A stretch of 64,000 nt of DNA from Octopus vulgaris (Eukaryota). Under the pieces are notes generated by a model, which was not told the DNA's origin, did no database searches, and saw nothing but the letters and a program-made list of their open reading frames with translations. The stretch spans positions 55,552,001 to 55,616,000 of the forward strand of contig OX597828.1 of the NCBI GenBank assembly GCA_951406725.2, in the 5' to 3' direction. Shown here piece by piece: positions 1,178 through 54,280 of the stretch. Within the stretch, counting starts at the first letter, position 1, and each line of letters opens with the position of its first letter. The position numbers and the translations under genes are program-made.

Positions 1178-1734
1178 AACGTTCACACATCCACCTACGC
1201 GCGCGCGCACACACACACACACACATATATATATCTGCAAGCTTTCAAATATGAATTCTAACTCGCGTCGGATATTCAAATCATTTGTAGCTAATACCTT
1301 GTTCTGGTCTCTTGTCACAAATTAACAGCATTGCTACCTGTGTAATAAAGTGAAATGTTAATGGATTCTTTAGATGAGATTACCGTTGCTTATTGGAAAA
1401 TTAGTAATTAAGTGTCTGTAGCTTTGCATATCTTTAATTCACACTTGATATCAAAATGAGAGTTGTTAACAAGAAAATTAATTTATTAAACACAATCATT
1501 AATTAAAGCTTTGGATATTGAAGCAGTTATTGACAAAGTCGACAACTTTCATTTGCAAGGTCTTCATATATAGCAGAAAAGGGAACAAATTTATAAGAAA
1601 AGAAAAAGAAGAAATATCGCTATCCTGTATATTCCAACTGTAATTAAACAAAAGTGTGTGGCATACTGACTGACGATATTGACAGAAATGAGGCTTAATT
1701 AGATCCAAACGCACCGTCGTCGACAATGTGTCTA

Positions 1735-1926
1735 TTCCCTTCTAATGTAGGCACAAGTCCTGAAATTTTGGGGAGGAGTTAAGTCGATTACATCGACTCC
1801 AGTGTTTTACTGGTACTTAAATTATCGACTCCGAAATGATGAAAGGCAAATCAACCTCGGCGTAATTTGAATTGAGAACGTAGCGGCGGGTGAAATACCG
1901 CTAAGCTTGTCGTCCAGCTCACCGCC

Positions 1927-1929
<3 letters not shown>
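1735..1929 (-). mobile_element. tRNA-derived SINE with GCCTTTCATC..GTCGATAA..AAGTACCAG core (Meta-like), tail type 1
   Basis: rc reads ggcggtgagctgg..gcctttcatcatttcggagtcgataatttaagtaccag..aaaatttcaggacttgtgcctac. Confidence 0.8.
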
Positions 1930-1993
<64 letters not shown>

Positions 1994-1994
1994 T
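1929..1994 (+). repeat. (TAA)n microsatellite
   Basis: Direct inspection. Confidence 0.95.
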
Positions 1995-2546
1995 AGGCTT
2001 CTGATCTTAACTGATGCTCTCATGGCTTCTGATCTTAACTGATTGGAAGTGTTATCATGTACATTGTTTTGTCTTGGTATAAAAGATGGGCTACAGCAAA
2101 TATTCTGCTCAATACCACAGATTTGCTTGTCAGTTGTTTGACCTTAACCAGTTGAGCATGTCCCTTAGTGGCTGATGATATGTGTATCTCTGATCACAAG
2201 CAGAAGTAGTGGGGGAGCATCATAGCCATGTGTTGAGAGGGATTCTTTGGGGTTTGAATAGTTCGCCTCTGGAAACATGGGTGGTTCTTTCAACATCCTT
2301 AAACAACCCTTATTCAGAGACCGTTTGAGCGGGATGAACTACTCAACCTGAAGAAAATTCTAACAGGGCCCCACCTGCAAGGTCATGTGCTGTTTATCTT
2401 GATATGAGATCACCATGCCGCGCACATATGGTTGTGATGCATGTGCCTGGTGTACCTTTATCAGACGGGTAGTCATGATGGGTATATTGGGCTTCGTATA
2501 TTTTACCCCAGTGTCACCTTGATGGCATGAACTGTTCTCTCACTCA
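1995..2546 (+). mobile_element. Probable 3' UTR of a (TAA)n-associated non-LTR retrotransposon
   Basis: Higher-GC non-coding block bounded on both sides by (TAA)n and ending ctctcactc-aataataat; adjacent to an R4/Dong-like ORF fragment. Confidence 0.55.
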
Positions 2547-2571
2547 ATAATAATAATAATAATAATAAAAT

Positions 2572-2602
<31 letters not shown>

Positions 2603-2620
2603 TATGATAATAATAATAAC

Positions 2621-2664
<44 letters not shown>

Positions 2665-2675
2665 TAATAATAATG

Positions 2676-2750
<75 letters not shown>
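2547..2750 (+). repeat. (TAA)n/(TGA) microsatellite
   Basis: Direct inspection. Confidence 0.95.
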
Positions 2751-2751
<1 letters not shown>

Positions 2752-3443
2752 CTGAAAAACTCTGAGGACTGGATGTTAGAACTTGTTTCAAAACATGAAA
2801 ACAAGAAAGCATCATACTCAGGAACAAAACAGGCAAAGGAATATCTAAGTGAATTCCGAATACAACAAATTTCGGAATTAGACATACAAAAATCAAGCAC
2901 AGAAAAAGCTAGGCGCATGAAAACCCGTGCTAAAACTGCGGCCTTAGATATTCTGAATGATAAATGGCAAGAAAAACCTCTCTATGGCAAATATCCAAAG
3001 AGAGCGAATAATGCAGATGTTGACAAAGCCCTTACCCATCAATACTTAGTGGCTTCTGGCTTAAAATCTGAAACAGAAGAGTTTATCATAGCAGCTGAAG
3101 ATCAATGCCTACCTACAAGGAACTACCAGGCCAACATATTAAAGAACGGCAGTAGCCCAACATGTCGTGTATGTCAACAACAAAAGGAAACTATTGATCA
3201 TGTTGTCTCCAAGTGCAGTCTTCTTGCGCCTACAGAGTATCTCAACAGGCATGATAGAGCTGCACAATATATTCACTGGGTAATTTGCAGAAGCCTGGAC
3301 TTGCCCCATGATAAAAACTGGTGGAAACACAAAAACCACTTCCAGTGCTTGAAAATGATCTCATCTCACTCCTCTGGAACTTCACCATTCAAACTGACTG
3401 AAAGATTGATGCAAATAGGCCAGACATTATATTGAAAGACTTT
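2751..3443 (+). mobile_element. R4/Dong-like LINE fragment (C-terminal CCHC knuckle and start of restriction-like endonuclease), frameshifted
   Basis: ORF 2773-3435 has CRVCQQQKETIDHVVSKC and RHD; a shifted frame continues LLWNFTIQTD*KIDANRPDIILKD (RLE PD motif); 5' end abuts (TAA)n. Confidence 0.85.
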
Positions 3444-3449
3444 AATTAA

Positions 3450-4130
3450 TGATTGTGTTTAATAAATTAATTGATTACACATTCACTAACTTTGTTTTCT
3501 TATACCATTCATAGAATCAAACGCCACAAAAATATGCTATTTAAAAAAAAAAGTTTCATAATGTCCACTAAATTTCCCAAGCCTCATATAGTCTTCAAAA
3601 TAATTGTGGAATTTCTATGGGAACTTCTAGTTCTGTATGAATTCCTTATACGTATTTGGTATTATGGGTATATGGGTATTTAGAGGAGATTTACAGGGGA
3701 TTGTGCGGATAAACAAATGTGCAATTTTTTCGATTTAAACAATGGTGTAATTTGTTTTTGAACTAAGTGTTTTTCTTCTGTTATTTAACCGATTTGTAAT
3801 GCCTTCACGTGATTAGGTGAAGAGAAAGGCGAAGAGCGAGAGAAAACGAGAGCGAAAAAGAGGGTGAGGCGAAGAGTGACAGAGAAAGAGGGCGAGTGCT
3901 GCATATTAATCTATATAATTGTGCATAAAGTATATAAAGTTTATATATAAAGTGCATTAAGTAATCATTCTATTCTAATTTCCTTCACTTTCCAATGATT
4001 AGCAGATGAGCGACTCTCTTTTGATACAGACACAAAACAGGCTACACTTTCAGGCTTTTTGGATGACGTTTTCAGAAATAGCCCAATAAGTTTACCATTA
4101 ATTGCGTGATATATTCACGGGTCCCGCTAG
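3450..4130 (+). mobile_element. Non-autonomous Helitron remnant (3' end; 5' boundary uncertain)
   Basis: Hairpin cgtga-tatat-tcacg followed by CTAG|T at 4127-4131. Confidence 0.55.
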
Positions 4131-5185
4131 TTTATGTTAATAAGTTTAACTTACACATAATACAAATGACAGGGGAAATTAAAGGGGTAGAAGAAAAGTA
4201 TTATAAGCCAAACAGTTCTTTCTGGGGGTTCGGAGATTCGTGATAATGTCGGTGGATGCAGTTCAGCACAGTATGCAGCCGTATGGAAGCCATTATCATT
4301 AGGTAAGACGAGCCACCGTCATCAGGCTAGAGATCTTACTTTTCCGATCTTAATGCAGAGAGGTTCAAATGTGTGGACTTTTTAATATGTCGGTACTTAT
4401 GTGTTTAAGCGTTATCCAATCTTGCATTATCATGGATTAAAAAAAAAATCACTCTTGTGTGAGAAAGATGAAAAGCTTGATTTGTTTTCAGTATAAAATG
4501 AAATGTTTCTCTGGGTATTTCAGCAACTAAGTTATCTCCGTAACTTTATCAATATATTACAAAATATATTACAAAATTGCAATCAGTTGATGCCAATGTC
4601 AAGTAAGAACTTGGGGAGGGGTTATCACTCCGAATTTCATTGCAAAACAGAACTATATATTTTGAAACAAAAACAGAACTATATATATGTTAAAAAAAAA
4701 ATTCATGAGTTTTTTATGGATTAGTGACAAAAAGCACGCCTGAGAAAGTTAATGAACCAAATTAGACATTAAATGAGTTTAGGGATAAAACCTCTATCAA
4801 CACTGAGCTGTATTGGAAACAATGTATCAATATTTCAACTTGAGTAGATCTAATCTGACTGGATGTCAAAACTATTTTATTTCTGGTCTGATTGAATAGA
4901 ACCTATTGATATCTAGTATTTATCATTCGCTACGTTAAAAGAAAAGTTCAAAAAACATCTGTCACATTAACGTCTCGATTAACGAATTGATTCTGCTTAA
5001 AAAGCTCACGCAATTTCAAACCAATTAGACCTCGTCAGCTCCTAATTGCGAAGAACATGACAACTGTCGTCCTCTCCCCCACTGCATTCTCTCTAGTGAT
5101 TCTAACGCCAGATTATTTAAAAATAAGTCTCAAATGAATGGTTTTATATGAAATTGTAAGCAGTCGTAGAATAAAATGCAAAAAA

Positions 5186-5222
<37 letters not shown>

Positions 5223-5814
5223 AAAGGAAAAAGGAGAAGTGAGTGATAGAAATGGTAAGAGAAAGAGTGAGTTAAAAAAATGAGGGTTTATGGGGTTCAA
5301 AATGCTGCGTAGAAAAGTAGATTCCACTTCGTCGCTACATTTCAGTTGATTTATGTATACATTAAGGCGGTAAATCAACAGGTGACAGATATATTTTGTT
5401 TCGCACAAATCACTATACAATGTTACTGCTTACTTTATAGAAGACATTTAAAGTTCTGATTCACTCTCTCATATTTTCTTCTATATATTTTCTTCTACAC
5501 AGTTATTTTTCTGTGTTTTGTGCGTGTATATATATATATATATGACTATGCGTGTGAGTGCGTGTATCTATGTAAGTGCGCTTGCGTGCGCTTATCTGTA
5601 TGGTTTAAGTGAGTGTGTGATTTTAACTGATAACATTTTCGAATGCATTTGATGTTTTTCTTTATTCTTCAATTCACACACCAACAATTCTTCGAGCCAG
5701 TGGGAACTTAATTTCCTACACTTCGTTTATCACTCTTTATTACTTTCTTCTTTCATTTTCTTTTAGTCGCTTCACTTGATAGGAAGTTCTCTGCTTTATT
5801 TCCTATCTTAACAT

Positions 5815-7190: not shown

Positions 7191-7330
7191 TATGTGGTGA
7201 GAAAAAAAAGTGTGTATGTGGGTGGGTGAGATACAGAAGCATCATGAAATAAAAAGCTCATTGAAGGTCATAGGCGTAATAGTCCAAGCTAAGCGAAATA
7301 TAGAAATATATGTGAGACAGAAAGCTTATA

Positions 7331-7562
7331 TTTTTCTTTACTACCCACAAGGGGCTAAACACAGAGGGGACAAACAAGGACAGACAAAGGGATCAAGTCG
7401 ATTACATCGACCCCAGTGCGTAACTGGTACTTAATTTATCGACCCCGAAAGGATGAAAGGCAAAGTCAACCTCGGCGGAATTTGAACTCGGAACATAAGG
7501 ACAGACGATATATGGCTACGCATTTCGCCCGGCATGCTAACGTTTCTGCCAGCTCACCGCCT
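7331..7562 (-). mobile_element. Full-length Meta-like SINE with Tx1-like 3' tail (tail type 2) and 18-bp TSD
   Basis: TSD tgagacagaaagcttata at 7313-7330 and 7563-7580; rc tail tttgtcccctctgtgtttagccccttgtgggtagtaaagaaa. Confidence 0.9.
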
Positions 7563-7584
7563 TGAGACAGAAAGCTTATAGTAG

Positions 7585-15334: not shown

Positions 15335-15700
15335 CAAACGTGTTGGGGTCGATTCATTTGGCTAAAATTCTTCTACTTGATGCCCCAGCATGGACGTAGT
15401 CTAGTGACTGAAACAAGAGGATGATAAAAGATCCAATTATAATTCATTCGGTCGTGCAGGCGCTCATTTGCTAGTTTGCTGATTTATTTATTTACTTATT
15501 TATTTATATAGGCTCAGTTGTGGCTGTGTGGTAAGAAGTTTGCTTCCCAACCACATATTGCCAGGTGAAGTTCCATTGCTTTTCATCTTGGACAAATGAC
15601 TTCTAATATAACCCGGACCAACTAAAGAACTGTGAGTGGATTTGATAGGCGTAAACACAAAGAAGCAATTCGTGTATATGTGTGTGCATGTATGAGTATG
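15335..15700 (+). mobile_element. SINE tail and head fragments (52811 family)
   Basis: Tail ~15335-15430, head ~15510-15690. Confidence 0.55.
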
Positions 15701-15789
15701 TGTGTTATTTTATAAATAATGCAAGTTTCAGTTTGCCTGTTGCGTTATGTATTAGCTTCCACATGGTTTTTGGTGCAGAAATTCTCAAC

Positions 15790-17559: not shown

Positions 17560-18535
17560 TTAGGTCATCCAATACATAATGCAGTTTTTTTTTATACCTC
17601 TTTTAGTTTTCAAAATTAAGATAAACAGAGTTCTTTTTTAATCTAAAATATACTTTCCTTCATCTTCTACAATGTCCTTCAATCTATCTGGTAAACTTCC
17701 AAAATAAATTTGTCCGTGTCGAAAAATACTCTCCACTACTGTTCTGACCTCGTCTAGAGAATTCATATTTTTCCTGTCCAAATGATTTTGAAGACTGCAG
17801 AATAAATGATAATCAGATGGGGCAATGTCCGGCGAATATGGTTAGTGGGACATCGTTTAATATTCAAACTGCTCCAGCCTTCGGAATGCCATCCTCGCTG
17901 TATGTGGCCGAGCATTATCCTCATGGAAGAACACATTTCGTCTTGGAAGCAAAGATAGTCATTTTTCTTCAAGCGCTGATTTAAGACGCTTAAGCTGCTC
18001 GCAGTAGATCTCCTTTGTTATCGTTTGGTTTAGATTTAAAAGTTCAAAGTGGACTAAACCTTTCATATCCAACCAAACAGGTAACAGCACTTTACGTGAA
18101 TGAAGATCTTCTTTAGCCTGTGTTTGCCGGTCTTTCTCCTTTCCCTACCACTGCCTTCGGCGCGTGACGTATTTATAGAGAATCCATTTCTCGTCATCAG
18201 TAACTACTCGGTCCAACAAAAAATTCATTCGTGAGATGTGACAGCACAAAGAAGAGTACATATTCACTCTCTGCGGGAGATCAGACTCGGAAAGTTTGTG
18301 AGGAACCCATTGAGCCAATGTGTTGCCTTTTCCGATGGCAAGCAAGAATCGATGAATGGTTGAATGACCAAATCCAAGCTTCTCTGCTTCTTCCCCAACA
18401 GTTGCTATGGGATTTTGTTCCACCAGGTTTTGCTGGACGTCTTCGTCGAGCTCTACAGATCTTACAGAACGAGGCTTGTCTTCTATGCAGTAGGTTCTGA
18501 CTCGAAATTTCTGAAACCACCGTTGCGACATTTGT
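17560..18535 (-). mobile_element. Mariner transposon fossil (disrupted transposase and 3' terminus)
   Basis: rc encodes WVPHKL, VTDDEKW, HEDNARPH and PYSPDIAPSDYHL motifs with frameshifts; TA-flanked terminus ttaggtcatcc. Confidence 0.9.
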
Positions 18536-18614
18536 GTGAAATATTTTCCTATAGAAAAAATCTTGCCAAGTAATGTTAAATGTTCTTCTTATAATAACAA
18601 TGACACTTGCTGAA

Positions 18615-22071: not shown

Positions 22072-23435
22072 CCTTTTTAAGAATATTACAGCTGAAAAAA
22101 TAAAATTTGGATCTAAGAAATCTCTGCATTCAATGAAACAGCGGCCCAAAATGTGCTTGCAGTGCCTGTACTCATACCAACATTTGGGCTGCTTGATAGG
22201 ATGATTAATGAAATCCGAGCCAATGATGTGAAAACCCTAAAAATACTAACAAGCATACATAATTTCCACATAAACAGTGACGTAGATCGTCCCTGCCTTA
22301 AACGAAAACAAAGAAGAGACTTAGCGTCGATCCAAAATGTCTTTGAGTGTCGCATCATATCCCTTCGGCAACATCTTTTAACTACTCAGTGTCGAAGTGC
22401 ATCCCTTGACCAAGTTGCATGAGGCTGATAACATCATAAGTCTTGGAAGGCAGCTCCTTGAGCAACACTCTTTGTCTGATAACCTAGAATACATGCCCAA
22501 AGAAGTCGCTCGACTCTACAACAACGTATCATCAGATGAAAGGATGAGCCTATATGAGCAGAAGACTATGCATGGATATATTACTAGAAGGCTTCGTGAT
22601 GATAGTAACATCGATCATCAAAGCAGTTTATCATGGACCAATAGCCGGATTACTGTTTCCCACTTTGAAGAGTATGCGTTTGCAATCCAGGAACAAGAAA
22701 TATCAGCCAAGTACCTGATGAACACAATGGTTAGAGATGCAGGTAAAGCCGTAAAGTGTGACAACCGATGCCGACATTGTGGAGCTCACACTGAAGATAT
22801 CACCCACATCATAAGCAGTTGTCCGAAGATGTCATCACGGTATTATCTACCGATGAGACATGACGTTGTAGCAAGGACACTCTATAATGGAATCCGTCGG
22901 AAGGATAATCCCGAGGACAGAGAAATAAGAACCCACAATATGGTAAAAGCCAATGCCACTCATAATAAAAAGGATTACTGGTGGAATGTACGAGTGAAGG
23001 CCTCAATAAAATGTAAGCAAGTCAGACCTGATAGGATGATTTGAGACACAGAAGAGAAACTATGCAGAGTTGTGGAAGTTAACTGCCCAGCGGATGTTAA
23101 CATAAAACTGAAGATCCGTGAAAAAGAGAACACCTATGCTGAACTATTGAGAAATCCGTAGTTACTCTATCCAGATTACAAGTTCAGGTTTATACCTGCA
23201 ATTATTGAGCCCTGGGATATGTAACACACTGCCTGAATATTAATCTTGAGAAATTAGGCCTCTCAAACCAGAAACAGGAAAGCCAATCCGAAGTTTACAG
23301 ACTTCCAATCCATCACTGGAACTTTACAAATATGCATAACTTTCCAGAAGTTTATCATTTAAATATATATGAGCATGTTTAGATATGCAGCTCTATGCAT
23401 GAGAATACATACATAAAACATACAAACTTGCACCT
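22072..23435 (+). mobile_element. R4-clade-like LINE, 5'-truncated and degenerate, flanked by (CATA)n
   Basis: FAIQEQEI, CRHCGAHTEDITHIISSC, RHD, RPDRMI.D..VVEVNCP and KENTYAEL (RLE domain); short 3' UTR merging into (CATA)n. Confidence 0.85.
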
Positions 23436-25432: not shown

Positions 25433-26695
25433 AGGCTCTTCGTAGACGATGGTGAACAGGTGTGGTCGCCGTTTGTGAGCACGCTTTCCGCAGCTCGTCC
25501 TCATGACCGAAGTGCAGTTGTGGATCAAAAAGAGGCCGAGGAAGGGCTAATGGCACCGCGAGTGTCGCGTTGTTCTCAAGCAACTCTGCCGTCCTGGGTC
25601 GACCTTGAGTGACTTCATCACAACCAAAGCATTCTATAGGGGATTGGTGGAGGGGAGGTACGACGACGAGCTCGGGGCGAACCTGGACGTCGACGAGGAG
25701 TACCTGACCCGCCTGTTCGGGACGACTTTCGGGCCAGGGCCCATGGACAACTTCCAGAGATCCCTGGACTGGCAGTGCTACCGAGAAGCGCTACCCGTTC
25801 GGAATAAGCTCTACAGACACGGCTCGAAAAACACGGGGCCGACCTGCCCGAGATGCGGTCAGAGCGACGAAACCGTTCTGCACGCAATCGTGCAATATCC
25901 AACAATTTCCGATCTGTGGGCTCATGTCGAACAACTGCTGTCACGTGTGGGACGAGTCGGTTTATCAGCTGAGTCTATCGTCAATATTGTCACGCTTCCT
26001 TCCTTCAAACGGGAAGGAAAGTTATTTTCATCATCCTTGTGGCTATGGCGAAAGAATGTATCTGGTGGACGCGTCTGAAAGGATTGGAGACAAACACTTT
26101 CCTCTCTGATCAATCTCTCATCAACTTCTTCAAGTACCACTTGAAAAGGAAAGTGAGAGTAGAGGCAAGTTTTGTCTAGCGAATGTTTTAAAAAAGATGG
26201 TTGAATGTAGCAAGGATGGCAAGTATGAATGACGAAGCCACCTTGAGCACAATCCTATGAACCCAGAAATTGAAAACAGAGGGTTACCCACTTGCAAACA
26301 AATGTGGTAACATATAACAATATTGACCAAGGTTACCGTGGTCTTTTTCGTAGGCTTTTCTTCCCACGGATGAACCTTACTTGCTTTCCCCTTTACACCA
26401 TACATCATAACACTGTGATACACGATCCCTATTGATCGTTTTTTTTACTCTTCCTCTTTTTTTCCTCTCTTTTTCTTCTTTTTTCATTTCTCTTTTCTTT
26501 TGTTCCTTTTCCTTTTTTTCTTTTTTTTTAATTTTATTTTTGTTCTTCTTTTTCCCTTTTACGATCCCTTTTGATCGAAAACCTACACCACCTATTTTTT
26601 CTTTTGTTTTTGTTTTTTTCATCCCCACCAAAAGAAAAGCTCTACCTTGTAACTTGTCCCATCTGTGTGCAGCCCTGTGTGGCCAATAAAGAAAC
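25433..26695 (+). mobile_element. Tx1/L1-like LINE copy 1, 5'-truncated and degenerate
   Basis: zf-RVT-like EALPV..CPRCGQSDETVLHAIVQYP; frameshifts; T-rich 3' UTR ending AATAAAGAAA; (TCTA)n on both sides. Confidence 0.88.
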
Positions 26696-26775
<80 letters not shown>

Positions 26776-26909: not shown

Positions 26910-28162
26910 GTCGCGCTGAGACGCGCTGAGACTGCGGCATCTCTGGCTCTATGTAGACGACGGTGAACAGGTGTGGTCGCCGTTTGTGAGGCACGCTTTC
27001 CCGCAGCTCGTCTCCATGACCGAACTGCAGTCGTGGATCAAAAAGAGGCCGAGGAAGGGCGAATGGCACCGCGAGTGTCGCGTTGCTCTCAAGCAACTCT
27101 GCCGTCCTGGGTCGACCTTAAGTGACTTCAACACAACCAAAGCATTCTATAGGGGTTTAGTGGAGGGGAGGTACGACGACGAGCTCGGGGCGAACCTGGA
27201 CGTCGACGAGGAGTACCTGACCCGCCTGTTCAGGACGACTTTCGGGCCAGGGCCCATGGACAACTTCCAGAGATCCCTGGCCTGGCAGTGCTACCGAGAA
27301 GCGCTACCCGTTCGGGATAAGCTCTACAGACACGGCTCGAGAAACACGGGGCCGACCTGCCCGAGATGCGGTCAGAGCGACGAAACCGTTCTGCACGCAC
27401 TCGTTCAGTGTCCAACAATTTCCGACCTGTGGGCTTATGTCGAACAACTGCTGTCACGTGTGGGACGAGTCGGTTTATCAGCTGAGTCTATCGTCAATAT
27501 TGTCACGCCTCCTTCCTTCAAACGGGAAGGAAGAGCTATTTTCATCATCCTTGTGGCTATGGCGAAAGAATGTATCTGGTGGACGCGTCTGAAAGGATTG
27601 GAGACAAACACTTTCCTCTCTGGTCAATCTCTCATCAACTTCTTCAAGTACCACTTGAAAAGGAAAGTGAGAATAGAGAGGCAAGTTTTGTCTAGCGAAT
27701 GTTTTAAAAAAAGATGGGTGAATGTAGCAAGAATGGCACGTATGAATGACGAAGCCACCTTGAGCATAGTCCTATGAACCCAGAAATCGAAAACAGAGAG
27801 TTGCTTATTTGCAAAAAAAAAAAAAAAAAAAAAGAAATATAAAATGTGACATCATTGACCGAGGTTACCGTGGTCTTTTCCGTAGGCTTTTCTTTGCACG
27901 GGTAAACCTCACCTGTCCTCCCCTTTACACTTCATATTGACATTTCTGTGATAACGATCCCTATTGATCAATTTTTTTCCTCCCCCCTTTTTTTTAAACC
28001 CCCCTTTTTTTGTCCTCTTTCTCTCCTTTTACGATCCCTTTTGATCGAAACTCCCCCTTCCTTTTTTTTTTTTTTTTTTTTCTTTCTTAAACCTTCAAAA
28101 GAAAAGCTCTACCTTGTAATTTGTTCTATCTGTGTGCAGCCCTGTGTGGCTAATAAAGAAAC
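26910..28162 (+). mobile_element. Tx1/L1-like LINE copy 2, 5'-truncated with open ORF2 C-terminus
   Basis: ORF 26971-27777 with CPRCGQSDETVLHALVQCP (CCHC); same 3' end; (TCTA)n on both sides. Confidence 0.9.
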
Positions 28163-28172
28163 ATATCTGTCT

Positions 28173-30161: not shown

Positions 30162-30580
30162 ATGATCCAGCATGGCCACAACCTCAAGGCTGAAACATAT
30201 AAAAGAATAACAGAATATAAATGTGTGCAAAGTACAAGAAATATTAATGCAGTATATGGGGATTGGACAATAAGCGTAAGGCAGTGTCAATGGTGGTTCC
30301 AGAAATCCCGAGCCATAAACTACAGCCTAGAAGACGAGCCTCATCCTGAAAGATCTGTAGAACTCGACAAGGACATCCTGAAAACCCTGGTGGAACAAAA
30401 TATCATCGTAACTGTTGAGGAACTAGCAGAGAAGCTTGGATTTGGTCATTCAACCATTCATTGACACCTGTGTGCTATCGGAAAAGTAAGCAAATTGGGT
30501 CAATGGGTTCCTCACGAACTTTCCGAGTCTAATTGCATGCAGAGAGTGAATGTATGCTTTTCTTTGCTGTCATATCTCAC
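30162..30580 (+). mobile_element. Mariner fragment (N-terminal HTH region), same family as 17560-18535
   Basis: SLEDEPHPERSVELDKDIL..AEKLGFGHSTIH..QWVPHEL matches the other copy. Confidence 0.85.
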
Positions 30581-31744: not shown

Positions 31745-31948
31745 CTTTTTTCTATAGGCAAAAGTGTTGAGGGGAGGGGAAATCGATTACATCGATCTTA
31801 CTGGTCGATTGTTGCTTATTTTATCGAGTCCAAATGGATGAAAGACAAAGTACACCTCAGCGACATTGTAAACTCAGAATGTAATGCCGGAAAAAGGCCG
31901 CTTAATTTTTTTGTCCGGCGCGCTAAATATACTACCAGCTCACGCCAT
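31745..31948 (-). mobile_element. Degenerate Meta-like SINE, tail type 1
   Basis: ctataggca..tcgattacatcga..ggatgaaagacaaagt..ccagctcacgcc. Confidence 0.65.
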
Positions 31949-32286
31949 TCATCATGATATAAAAGAACACAATAAAGATTCGCTTTTAATTATAGAAATC
32001 AAAGAATATAAAGCTGTAAATAAATGCGCATAAATTTTGAATTAAAACCCTATTTGGATAGAAGAAATATGGAGGACTAACCATGATGCACGAAACTATA
32101 TAACCTATAAACATTTCATCATCTCAGGGTCAATAAGATAAGTACTAGTTGAGAGCTGAGGTCAATGTAATCGTCTTACCCCGCCTCGAACTTGCTGGCC
32201 TTGTGCTGAAATTTTAAACCATTTTTATTCTTTGAACATGTTTTCTGTATTTTATTGCGAGTCTTTCTTTTCTGCTTTCCGTTTCT

Positions 32287-32702
32287 TATTTCTTTACTGC
32301 CGGCAAGAGGCTACACACAGAGGGGACAAACAAGGACAGACAAACGGATTAAGTCGATTATATCGACCCCAGTGCGTAACTGGTACTTAATTTATCGACC
32401 CCGAAAGGATGAAAGGCAAAGTCGACCTCAGTGGAATTTGAACTCAGAATGTAGCGGCAGACGAAATGCCTATTTCTTTACTACCCTCAAAGAGCTAAAC
32501 ACAGAGGGGACAAACAAGGACAGACAAAGGGATTAAGTTGATTATTTCGACCCCAGTGCGTAACTGGTAGTTAATTTATCGACCCCCGAAAGGATGAAAG
32601 GCAAAGTCGACCTCGGTGGAATTTGAACTCAGAACGTAACGGCGGGCGAAATACCGCTTAGCATTTCGCCCAGCGTGCTAACGTTTCTGCCAACTAGCCG
32701 AC
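32287..32702 (-). mobile_element. Tandem dimer of Meta-like SINE with Tx1-like tails and a shared ~17-bp TSD
   Basis: Two units; flanks ttctgctttccgtttct (32270-32286) and ttctgctttccgattct (32703-32719). Confidence 0.88.
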
Positions 32703-33070
32703 TTCTGCTTTCCGATTCTGCATTCTATTTCTGTCTTCCATTTCATTAAGTCTTTTTATACGACTGTCCCTTTAAATATTGCAAATGTTTCCTTACTTAT
32801 ATGATAAAGCACATACATACAACCACATATAAATGAGCACACACACACACACACTCATATAAATATACACATGTATTTATTTAATATATATATATATTAT
32901 AAATATATGTGCATATATTCATATATATTTGCATACAATATCATTTACGTAAATATATACACAGTCTATATATCCTTCTCTCTCTCTTTCTGTGGATATA
33001 TGTTTATAAATATGTATATGTTTATATACACATATATCGATTTATGATCGTACTATTGCAATTTTGAGAT

Positions 33071-40909: not shown

Positions 40910-41140
40910 TTTTCTACTCTAGGGACAAAGCCTGAAATGTTTTGTGTGCGTGTGTGTGTGTGTGGGGGGGGTCCAGCCGATTAGATCAACACCACTAGAC
41001 AACTGGTACTTGATTTATCGTCCCCGAAAGGATGAAAGGCAAAGTCGACCTCGGCGGAATTTGAACTCACAACGTTGCGACAGACGAAATACTGCTGAGC
41101 ATTTCGCCCGTGCTAACGTTTCTGCCAGCTCGTTGCCTTT
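40910..41140 (-). mobile_element. Meta-like SINE, tail type 1
   Basis: ccccgaaaggatgaaaggcaaagtcgacctcggcggaatttgaactc. Confidence 0.8.
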
Positions 41141-48381: not shown

Positions 48382-49297
48382 GGGGAGGTGCGGCGACGTT
48401 CTCTGGCAGAATCTGGGCGTCGATGAGGAAAACCTGACCCGCCTGTTCAAGACAACTTTCGGGCCGGGACCTATGAACAATCACCAAAGGTCCGTGGTCT
48501 GGCAGTGCTATCGAGAAGCATTACCTGTTCGGGATAAGCTCTACAGGCACGGTTCGAGACACACCGGGCCGACTTGCCCGAGATGCAGTCAGAGCGACGA
48601 AACCTTTCTGCACGCACTCGTGCAGTGTCCAACTATTTGGGACCTGTGGACTTATGCTGAACGGCTGCTGTCACGTGTCTTGTCAGCCGAGACTATCGTG
48701 ATAATTGCTCCGCCATCTTCCCTCAACCGGGAAGGCAAGGCAGTTTTCATCGTACTGGTGGCCATGGTGAAAGAATGTGTGCGGTGGACTCGAGTGAAAG
48801 GATTAGAGACAAACACTTACTTCTCTGGCCAATCGCTCATCAACTTTTTCAAATACCACTTGAAAAGGAAGGTGAGAATGGAGAGGCAGGTTTTGTCTCG
48901 TGAAAGTTTCAAAAAAAGGGGGTGAATGTAGCAAAGATAGTGCGTGCGAGCGACGAAACTACTTTGAGCATGATCCTGTAAATCGAAAAGAGAGACAGAG
49001 AGAGAGGGAGAGCACTTTGCTCTCACGTGTTTATTCTCACCTTGCCTGAGGTTACCGTGGTCTTTTCCGTAGGCTTTTCTTTCCACGGATAAACCTAAAC
49101 TTGCTTCTTACATTAAAATGTTTTTTCTGTGATACACGATCCCTTTTGATCGCCCACCCCTTTTTCCCCGATGCTTTTGATCGTAATTTTACATTCTTTT
49201 TCTCTTTCTTCCCTTTTTCTTTTTCATTTCACAAAAGAAAAGCTTTACATTTGTATTTGTCCCATCTTTGTTCAGCTCTTTGTGGCCAATAAAGAAA
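48382..49297 (+). mobile_element. Tx1/L1-like LINE copy 3 (diverged subfamily), 5'-truncated
   Basis: CPRCSQSDETFLHALVQCP; flanks tatctatctatct and tatctatctgtctatct. Confidence 0.88.
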
Positions 49298-52810: not shown

Positions 52811-52968
52811 ATGGAGTGGCAGTGTGGTAAGTAGCTTTCTTAGCAACCACATCGTTCCGGGTTCATTCCGACTGCGTGGCACCTTGGGCAAGTGTCTTCT
52901 ACTATAACCTCGGGCCGACCAAAGCCCTGTGAGTGGATTTGGTAGACGGAAACTGAAAGACGCCCGTC

Positions 52969-53008
<40 letters not shown>

Positions 53009-53240
53009 GTGTGTGTGTATGTGTGTATGTTTGTGTGTCTGTGTTTGTCCCCCCAACATCGCTTGACAACCGATGCTGGTGCGTTTGCGTCCCCGTAACT
53101 TAGCGGTTCGGCAAAAGAGAGCGATAGAATAAGTACTAGGCTTACAAAGAATAAGTGCTGGGGTTGATTTGCTAGACTAAAGGCAGTGCTCCAGCATGGC
53201 GGCAGTCAAAATAACTGAAACATGTAAAAGAGTAAAAGAG
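52811..53240 (+). mobile_element. Full-length tRNA-derived SINE with internal (TA)n(TG)n (resembles octopus OK-type SINE)
   Basis: A/B-box head, caccttgggcaagtgtctt CORE-like motif, internal microsatellite, gtaaaaga-repeat tail; many copies in the window. Confidence 0.85.
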
Positions 53241-53929: not shown

Positions 53930-54239
53930 TGGCACGTATGAATGACGAAGCCACCTTGAGTATGATCCTGTGAACCCGGGAAAATTTAAAACTGAGAGTT
54001 ACTTACTTGCAAATAAATGTGTTAACATGTGACACTATTGAGCGAGGTATTTGTTTCCCCCTTTACACTTTATATCATGACATTTCCATGCTACAAGATC
54101 TCTATTGATCGTTTTTTTCTTTCCTTTTTAAGATCCCTTTTGATCGAAAATCTACCCCCTTTATTTTTCTCCCACAAAAGAAAAGCTCTACCTTGTAATT
54201 TGTCCCCTCTGTGTTCAGCCCTGTGTGGCTAATAAAGAA

Positions 54240-54240
<1 letters not shown>
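53930..54240 (+). mobile_element. Tx1/L1-like LINE copy 4, 3' end only
   Basis: [13 protein letters not shown] plus 3' UTR ending AATAAAGAAA; (TCTA)n on the 5' side, (TA)n on the 3' side. Confidence 0.88.

Positions 54241-54280
<40 letters not shown>

Follow-up and report, generated by a model that had tools for sequence, protein, structure and literature searches.

A short interspersed element of Octopus vulgaris with a tail like the 3' ends of L1/Tx1-like retrotransposons: a candidate animal pairing

Described SINE-LINE pairs and the octopus element

Pairs in which a short interspersed element (SINE) shares its tail with a long interspersed element (LINE) of the L1 clade make up 3 of 58 SINE-LINE pairs in a published count, all from plants or algae (PMC3472496, PMC3747384). 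In maize (ZmSINE2 and ZmSINE3 with LINE1-1_ZM) and Chlamydomonas (SINEX-3_CR with L1-1_CR), the partners have their last 45-80 nt in common, together with a predicted hairpin (PMC3472496, PMC3747384). Here we describe a similar case in Octopus vulgaris: a SINE subfamily, T2, represented by a 229-nt monomer at positions 7333-7561, (-) strand, of a 64,000-nt stretch of contig OX597828.1 (the window; contig positions 55,552,001 to 55,616,000), the tail of which resembles the 3' ends of an L1/Tx1-like LINE lineage. It differs from the maize and Chlamydomonas pairs in that the host is an animal, the LINE lineage is Tx1-like and target-preferring, poly(A) is absent, copies number at least 94,572, and the closest tail is found on an element that encodes only the first open reading frame (ORF1).

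Crocodilian SINEU has likewise been inferred to move by proteins of the Tx1 clade, represented by Tx1-Mar (PMC4494074). SINEU differs, however, in its small nuclear RNA (snRNA) heads and poly(A) and in that its link to the LINE comes from target preference, no LINE with the SINEU-1 3' end having been found; octopus T2 shares the 3' end and not the target, and SINEU the opposite. A single head and core with several tails, as in the octopus, is also known from SINE superfamilies that exchange tails, with CR1, CR1-Zenon, L2 and Nimb as partners in bivalves (PMC4824008, PMC11481361). An L1/Tx1 partner is absent from these two accounts, 'tx1' having 0 occurrences in either main text.

Tail homology, tail replacement and age

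In the window monomer, the head and core common to all tail types (7397-7561, (-)) adjoin a T2 tail of ~63 nt (7333-7396, (-)), the final 50-57 nt of which are homologous to Tx1-like 3' ends; a weak terminal hairpin is predicted within it. Identical 18-bp target-site duplications (TSDs) flank the insertion at 7563-7580 (5' side) and 7313-7330 (3' side). An earlier note on the window had proposed that this tail aligns with the last ~42 nt of LINE copies, and the last 42 nt of the SINE are indeed identical to a LINE end at 54199-54240 at 37/42 positions, ungapped. Tails were scored by local alignment to the T2 majority tail against 500 dinucleotide shuffles (26 tails, including 22 non-SINE). The same LINE end scored 60 (42/50; shuffle mean 15.7, maximum 28), terminating at the same base as the T2 majority tail, and the other three window LINE ends scored 40-45 (shuffle maxima 22-29). 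All non-SINE tails (22/22) outscored the best of 500 shuffles and ended at the SINE's last base, so that the claimed similarity held against shuffled controls and in its common 3' end. Chance similarity between SINE and LINE tails was ruled out by the shuffle scores. As judged from these alignments, the tail is almost certainly shared by descent between the T2 SINE and the L1/Tx1-like lineage.

The earlier note's reading of the other window copies also stood. Both units of a dimer placed by it at 32287-32702 carry the T2 tail (59/63 and 58/63 over 32289-32700): the first has a full head (32473-32700, (-)) and the second begins at about SINE position 48 (32289-32470, (-)), with 17-bp TSDs at 32270-32286 and 32703-32719 that differ by one mismatch. 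Copies at 1735-1920 and 40910-41136 (both (-), old tail T1a) and a decayed copy with an old-type tail at 31745-31943 (-) have the same head and core with an unrelated tail; the old majority tails scored ≤19 against the 26 tails tested, within the shuffle range. The SINE head holds an A-box-like motif at position 10-20; no canonical B box was found in it by a simple pattern, and ARAGORN and Rfam searches for a transfer RNA origin gave no match.

The genome searched comprised 2.8 Gb in 227 contigs, and SINEs were counted in 834 kb of unselected DNA. This sample held 171 core matches: 59 T2, 29 T1a, 29 T1b, 37 unclassified (by eye mostly decayed T1-like), 14 truncated at the 3' end and 3 at edges. 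Extrapolation from it gives ~200,000 T2 units genome-wide; exact matches to 26 nt of the T2 tail number 94,572, a lower bound for T2 copies, and the exact 33-nt core-tail junction of one T2 subtype has 30,381 matches. Median core divergence from the class majority is 6.2% for T2 (n = 63; minimum 1.9%), 12.4% for T1a (n = 25) and 17.7% for T1b (n = 19). Because its core divergence is lower than that of T1a and T1b, T2 is the derived state and the youngest SINE subfamily. Its age overlaps the activity of the window LINE family (family A, below), whose older copies are 5.9% diverged, as the earlier note's pairing implied. In contigs of four public runs with four coded organism labels (contigs only; metagenome rows of small share were set aside), the T2 tail was covered and T1-type loose ends fell at 7395/7396, the same boundary as the joint between core and T2 tail.

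TSDs of at least 9 bp, low-complexity cases included, flank 47/81 T2 elements (median 15 bp, range 9-26 bp; cross-pair control ≤2.7%, on a smaller set), 14/46 T1a elements (median 14 bp) and 11/25 T1b elements (median 12 bp). The 17-18 bp that the earlier note gave for T2 insertions is right for the two in the window and too narrow for the subfamily. The T2 median fits the L1-clade range of 7-18 bp with a mode at 13-15 (PMC6007223). TSD length, which had been put forward to separate the tail types, was ruled out as a marker of the tail switch, as the medians are alike.

The earlier note further held that the SINE switched partners by capturing a Tx1-type tail. Replacement of the tail and its L1/Tx1 homology are borne out; a change of partner clade is put in doubt by the like folds of T1 and T2. 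The T1a, T1b and T2 majority tails, though T1 and T2 cannot be aligned, are each predicted to form a 4-bp stem closing the same 5-nt CTTGT loop. Together with the similar TSD medians, this would suit an explanation in which T1a and T1b were themselves Tx1-type tails of an earlier date, the SINE having kept to one lineage while its tail was repeatedly replaced, with no change of partner clade. Against it, T1 and T2-type tails have no sequence similarity above shuffles, old-tail T1 copies continue into (ATT)n, and no LINE-like carrier of T1 tails was found in 1.95 Mb or by one genome-wide pattern (2 matches, both SINE-like). We give this explanation, which is compatible with most of the one preferred below, somewhat less than even credit. 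As a separate observation, an old Tx1-like fragment (locus L072, 4214-4800; a single copy) has an end running into CCATTATTAT-type sequence, as in the T1b SINE tail.

Autonomous families and ORF1-only elements

The LINE ends of the window belong to one family, A. Its four copies, all on the (+) strand and 5'-truncated, are an older one whose last 50 nt match T2 (53930-54243), a second older one (48382-49297), a young one in (TCTA)n with an open C-terminus of the second open reading frame (ORF2) that contains zf-RVT (26910-28164), and a frameshifted one in (TCTA)n (25433-26696). A genome search with an open 285-aa frame gave 36,236 family A candidates, of which 136 were scored, all at 100% identity. 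A full copy (L063) encodes a 623-aa ORF1 and a 1145-aa ORF2 with endonuclease (APE), reverse transcriptase (RT) and zf-RVT domains in Pfam. A CCHC zinc knuckle in ORF1 is a feature of the Tx1 clade; in L063 the zf-CCHC match reached 17.8 bits, under the 20.8 cut-off. The best solved match of the family A ORF2 is human L1 ORF2p (E 1.6e-52; R2, E 7e-21), and by protein comparison family A is a member of the L1 group. A protein of Argonauta hians, at 69% identity, was the single close homologue to carry a name, and homologue searches with the ORF2 protein had no named Tx1 protein among their matches. Family A is likely of the Tx1 clade, because among APE-type LINEs only the Tx1 and R1 clades hold site-specific members in the account of PMC6007223. 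Three TATC units follow 16/25 young and 11/21 older family A ends (background 0.23%; 21 of 30 older loci matched the end pattern), and the TSDs of older copies are mostly microsatellite and uninformative. The family also looks very recently active, 30 sampled ORF2 ends being 0.1% diverged (window 26910-28164; L031-L063), with many full 1149-codon frames and tandem stacks inside (TCTA)n.

The T2-type tail is common to at least five autonomous families. Family D (L251-L262, L266, L268) is an intact two-ORF Tx1-like element, 0.8% diverged and with an ORF2 ~62% identical to that of A; all of its ends (14/14) run into CT repeats, (CT)n. Family E (L263-L265, L267, L269, L270), an intact two-ORF relative, has an ORF2 53-57% identical to that of A, non-microsatellite flanks, and TSDs of 19-26 bp in 4/6 copies. 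Two further autonomous families are C, which sits in (TCTA)n like A, and F. In target type, A and C in (TCTA)n and D in (CT)n resemble the microsatellite-specific Tx1 elements Kibi and Koshi (PMC4494074), here in a mollusc lineage.

The closest tails were found elsewhere. T2 was matched best by L337 (52/57), L334 (49/55) and L190 (50/57), and the ranking runs from groups G (L337, L334) and B (50/57, 50/58) to families C (46/54) and A (≤42/50), then F, E and D. The L334 tail reaches 95-98% identity with SINEs of the GGCAA tail subtype (55-58 nt aligned); four further G copies, more decayed, scored 51-63. The closest tails, 91-98% identical over ~56 nt, are on relatives with ORF1 only. Group B, reached by way of a third tail carrier in a random sample searched with a profile built from LINE tails only, consists of elements of ~1.3-1.9 kb with an ORF1 ~30% identical to that of family A, no ORF2, and often a head-to-tail arrangement; its ORF1 found 12,485 candidates in the genome. 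In group G, ORF1 lies directly ahead of the 3' region or tail, with no ORF2 between (L226, L337, L338), and three other G loci are 5'-truncated. Among 30 ORF1 loci (one, L250, scored on the wrong strand), 16 continue into ORF2 and 14 have none within 1.5 kb downstream, and in 7 of the latter a tail follows at a distance of 712-1177 nt. A 27-row tree built from ORF1 unites 12 sequences with no ORF2 behind them, L226 and L338 among them, in a clade (99/98) that excludes A, D, E and F. A further four rows of ORF1-only type lie outside that clade, and the deep branching of the tree is poorly resolved. Head-to-tail arrays of such half-elements with several tail variants were seen at L201, L202, L204, L207, L270 and L337.

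Elements with an ORF1 homologue alone followed by a LINE 3' end are known as HAL1, HeT-A and Ag-Sponge (PMC5786205); B and G differ in their Tx1-like origin, head-to-tail arrays and a tail closest to that of a SINE. It has been argued, of the entire element, that such ORF1-only elements are not a source of SINEs (PMC5786205). B elements (9.3-10.7% diverged) are older than T2 (6.2%), which fits donation of the tail to the SINE. Because ORF1-only elements cannot supply RT, the tail was donated by one element and the SINE mobilised by another, unless the autonomous parent escaped sampling. A pattern for autonomous elements with a G-type tail gave 80 matches, 2 of them LINE-like (L331, L332), both 5'-truncated and with no ORF upstream; a DNA search added L335, L337 and L338, none with ORF2. 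The earlier note's suggestion of a related non-specific family as partner is partly borne out: family E exists outside microsatellites and is a candidate SINE partner, whereas the best tail match lies on ORF1-only elements that lack RT.

Could the (TCTA)n family A have been both tail donor and mobiliser of the SINE, the ORF1-only elements being merely similar? It outnumbers every other family by a wide margin, its older copies have the same age as T2 and match 42/50 of the tail, and 10/21 older ends are free of three TATC units. Yet a block common to G, B and the SINE is short of its first 9-10 nt in family A, the family's scores run lower (40-60, against 51-87 for group G), and T2 has no TATC enrichment: three TATC units follow 154 ends among at least 94,572 copies. 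We consider this explanation improbable. Window family A as the closest tail donor was ruled out by its lower scores than G and B; it may nevertheless have mobilised a SINE whose tail came from elsewhere.

When the terminal 35 nt of each tail were folded singly, the same stem-loop, with outer and inner stems, was predicted in 21/26 tails despite changed bases and a register shift. Folding of the shared tail, a check suggested in the earlier note, gives a predicted stem-loop in single tails, with weak energies and no consensus structure (below). In our reading, which rests on sequence, T2 was very probably mobilised by this L1/Tx1-like lineage; more specifically, its tail is homologous to an L1/Tx1-like 3' end, and copying was probably done by the RT of an autonomous member of the lineage, or of several, which would recognise the shared hairpin. 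That the tail is instead a passive relic of one chimera, with the SINE's movement due to a relaxed enzyme or one from outside the lineage, we hold to be very improbable; the weak hairpin of the commonest T2 form speaks for it, but insertions end within a few bases of the tail though the RNA runs into further units, T2 has no poly(A), and T2 was the last subfamily to expand.

Target sites and proposed read-through

T2 copies are not in (TCTA)n, as the earlier note had it: three TATC units follow at most 0.16% of the 94,572 ends (background 0.23%). This absence alone leaves room for family A, which may have been the mobiliser if read-through RNA sets the target. The commonest T2 continuations are AGGTA (21/81), AAGAA (13/81) and ATATA (10/81), and in SINE multimers, where units restart at SINE position ~48 or ~14, the following unit begins with AGGTA or AAGAA as well. 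The 4-mer GGTA or AGAA is present in register in the 5' TSD copy, that is, in the pre-insertion site, of 17/47 T2 insertions; with distal-base registration only, the count is 14/37 for T2 and 0/17 for old tails (background 0.96%). AAGAA follows 6/18 GGCAA-subtype tails and 0/76 others; since it is restricted to that subtype, the continuation follows the element. Some T2 copies with TSDs (L142, L285) lie inside older SINEs at position ~48.

Pairing of RNA with the target at priming has been reported for R1Bm, SART1, the I factor and R2Ol (PMC7265360, PMC6007223). The octopus pattern is like that of R1Bm and SART1 in a short pairing of RNA past or near the 3' end with the nicked target (PMC7265360), and differs in that those are R1-clade LINEs examined by assay, the octopus SINE being judged from genomic flanks. 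We lean towards read-through priming as the main determinant of T2 targets. A different account is that the endonuclease of a non-specific partner prefers GGTA/AGAA-like sites and the bases after the tail are target. A Tx1 endonuclease can be sequence-selective (PMC4494074), and family E insertions lie outside microsatellites. However, both 4-mers equal next-unit starts in SINE multimers, the continuation tracks the tail subtype, the read-through bases of L304, L129 and L141 are in the 3' flank and not in the 5' TSD copy, and the five family E ends examined had no GGTA/AGAA-type 4-mer. An endonuclease preference of this kind is unlikely; in the form of two different partners, one per subtype, it is the main alternative to read-through priming.

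The course of events that we prefer runs as follows. Exchange of the older SINE's tail at one fixed point is seen in the copies themselves. The new tail would have come, by a probable template switch, from the G/B sub-lineage or an unsampled autonomous parent, and not from the (TCTA)n family of the window. A protein of the lineage would bind the hairpin and start cDNA 1-6 nt beyond the tail on read-through RNA, and ~4 read-through bases would then pair with the nicked target; the correlation with GGTA/AGAA-type sites, and not (TCTA)n, is observed, and pairing is its presumed cause. The 184-bp multimers would arise where such insertions hit another SINE copy at position ~48. Extended to the other tail carriers, this reasoning suggests that A may read through into TATC, D into CT repeats, and B into the B element that follows. 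In its widest form, the proposal is that an animal SINE lives as a parasite on a stringent Tx1-type lineage by a hairpin tail captured from an ORF1-only half-element, that read-through RNA largely sets the landing sites of the whole lineage, and that each family inherits as its target whatever lies downstream of the source copy, be it (TCTA)n, (CT)n, a SINE body or the 5' end of a like element; this we advance as tentative and rather doubtful.

Several observations weigh against the preferred course. Folding energies are modest (median z -1.5; 12/26 tails below -1.64), the commonest T2 form has a hairpin z of only -0.39, and consensus folding of a 24-row tail alignment gave no structure, partly from misregistered 3' ends. 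Old-tail TSDs are similar in length to those of T2, and family E TSDs look longer. The exact 4-mer is absent from 23/37 T2 targets. The tails closest to T2 are on ORF1-only elements, and not on the LINE taken as partner in the earlier note, and neither the pattern nor the DNA search turned up an autonomous family whose tail matches T2 as well as that of group G does. The Tx1 label of family A rests on domain layout and target preference, in place of a reference Tx1 tree. Finally, the LINE divergences (older family A, 5.9%; family E, 0.4-7.5%; B elements, 9.3-10.7%) are from small search-selected sets of 4-30 copies and are biased low.

Other repeats and significance

Other repeats were seen beside these elements. 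Two other LINE fragments in the window, with weak zf-RVT matches and one beside (AAT)n (2749-3435 and 22382-23044, (+)), are presumably R4/Dong-like; a transposase-like fragment with no Pfam match (18145-18588, (-), and 30288-30580) we take to be mariner-like. A second very abundant repeat of ~410 bp (653-1094, 15520-15705, 52814-53239) occurs in most loci fetched. Long open frames of another retroelement at L217 (oriented 1477-5250) are, we assume, Penelope-like, and a 400-bp element resembling a miniature inverted-repeat transposable element, with inverted ends, is inserted in B elements and SINEs (L142, L181, L190, L204).

The SINE family itself is probably already known; the candidate novelty is the partnership. 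In the literature found, plants and a green alga are the only hosts for which a SINE sharing a tail with an L1-clade LINE is described, and no octopus or other animal SINE with a Tx1 tail was found there, though Repbase or Dfam entries or supplements could already record the pair. The octopus genome report gives SINEs as 11.6% of the genome, with a SINE/LINE peak at divergence 0.065; it lists L1-Tx1, leaves SINEs mostly unclassified, and has 'tail' 0 times in its supplement (PMC13282606). This peak is close to the 6% of T2, so that the lineage described here names candidate drivers of the octopus SINE expansion. The only Tx1-linked SINE that we found in print, SINEU, shares a target and not a tail. 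If the octopus pairing is true, 3'-end recognition would be stringent in an animal L1/Tx1 group, which bears on the question of a derived origin for poly(A)-relaxed recognition. Should targets be set by read-through RNA, the microsatellite specificity of Tx1 elements can be self-perpetuating instead of fixed by the endonuclease; with intact young ORF2s for three targets and a natural reporter in one genome, the question of endonuclease versus RNA pairing becomes testable.
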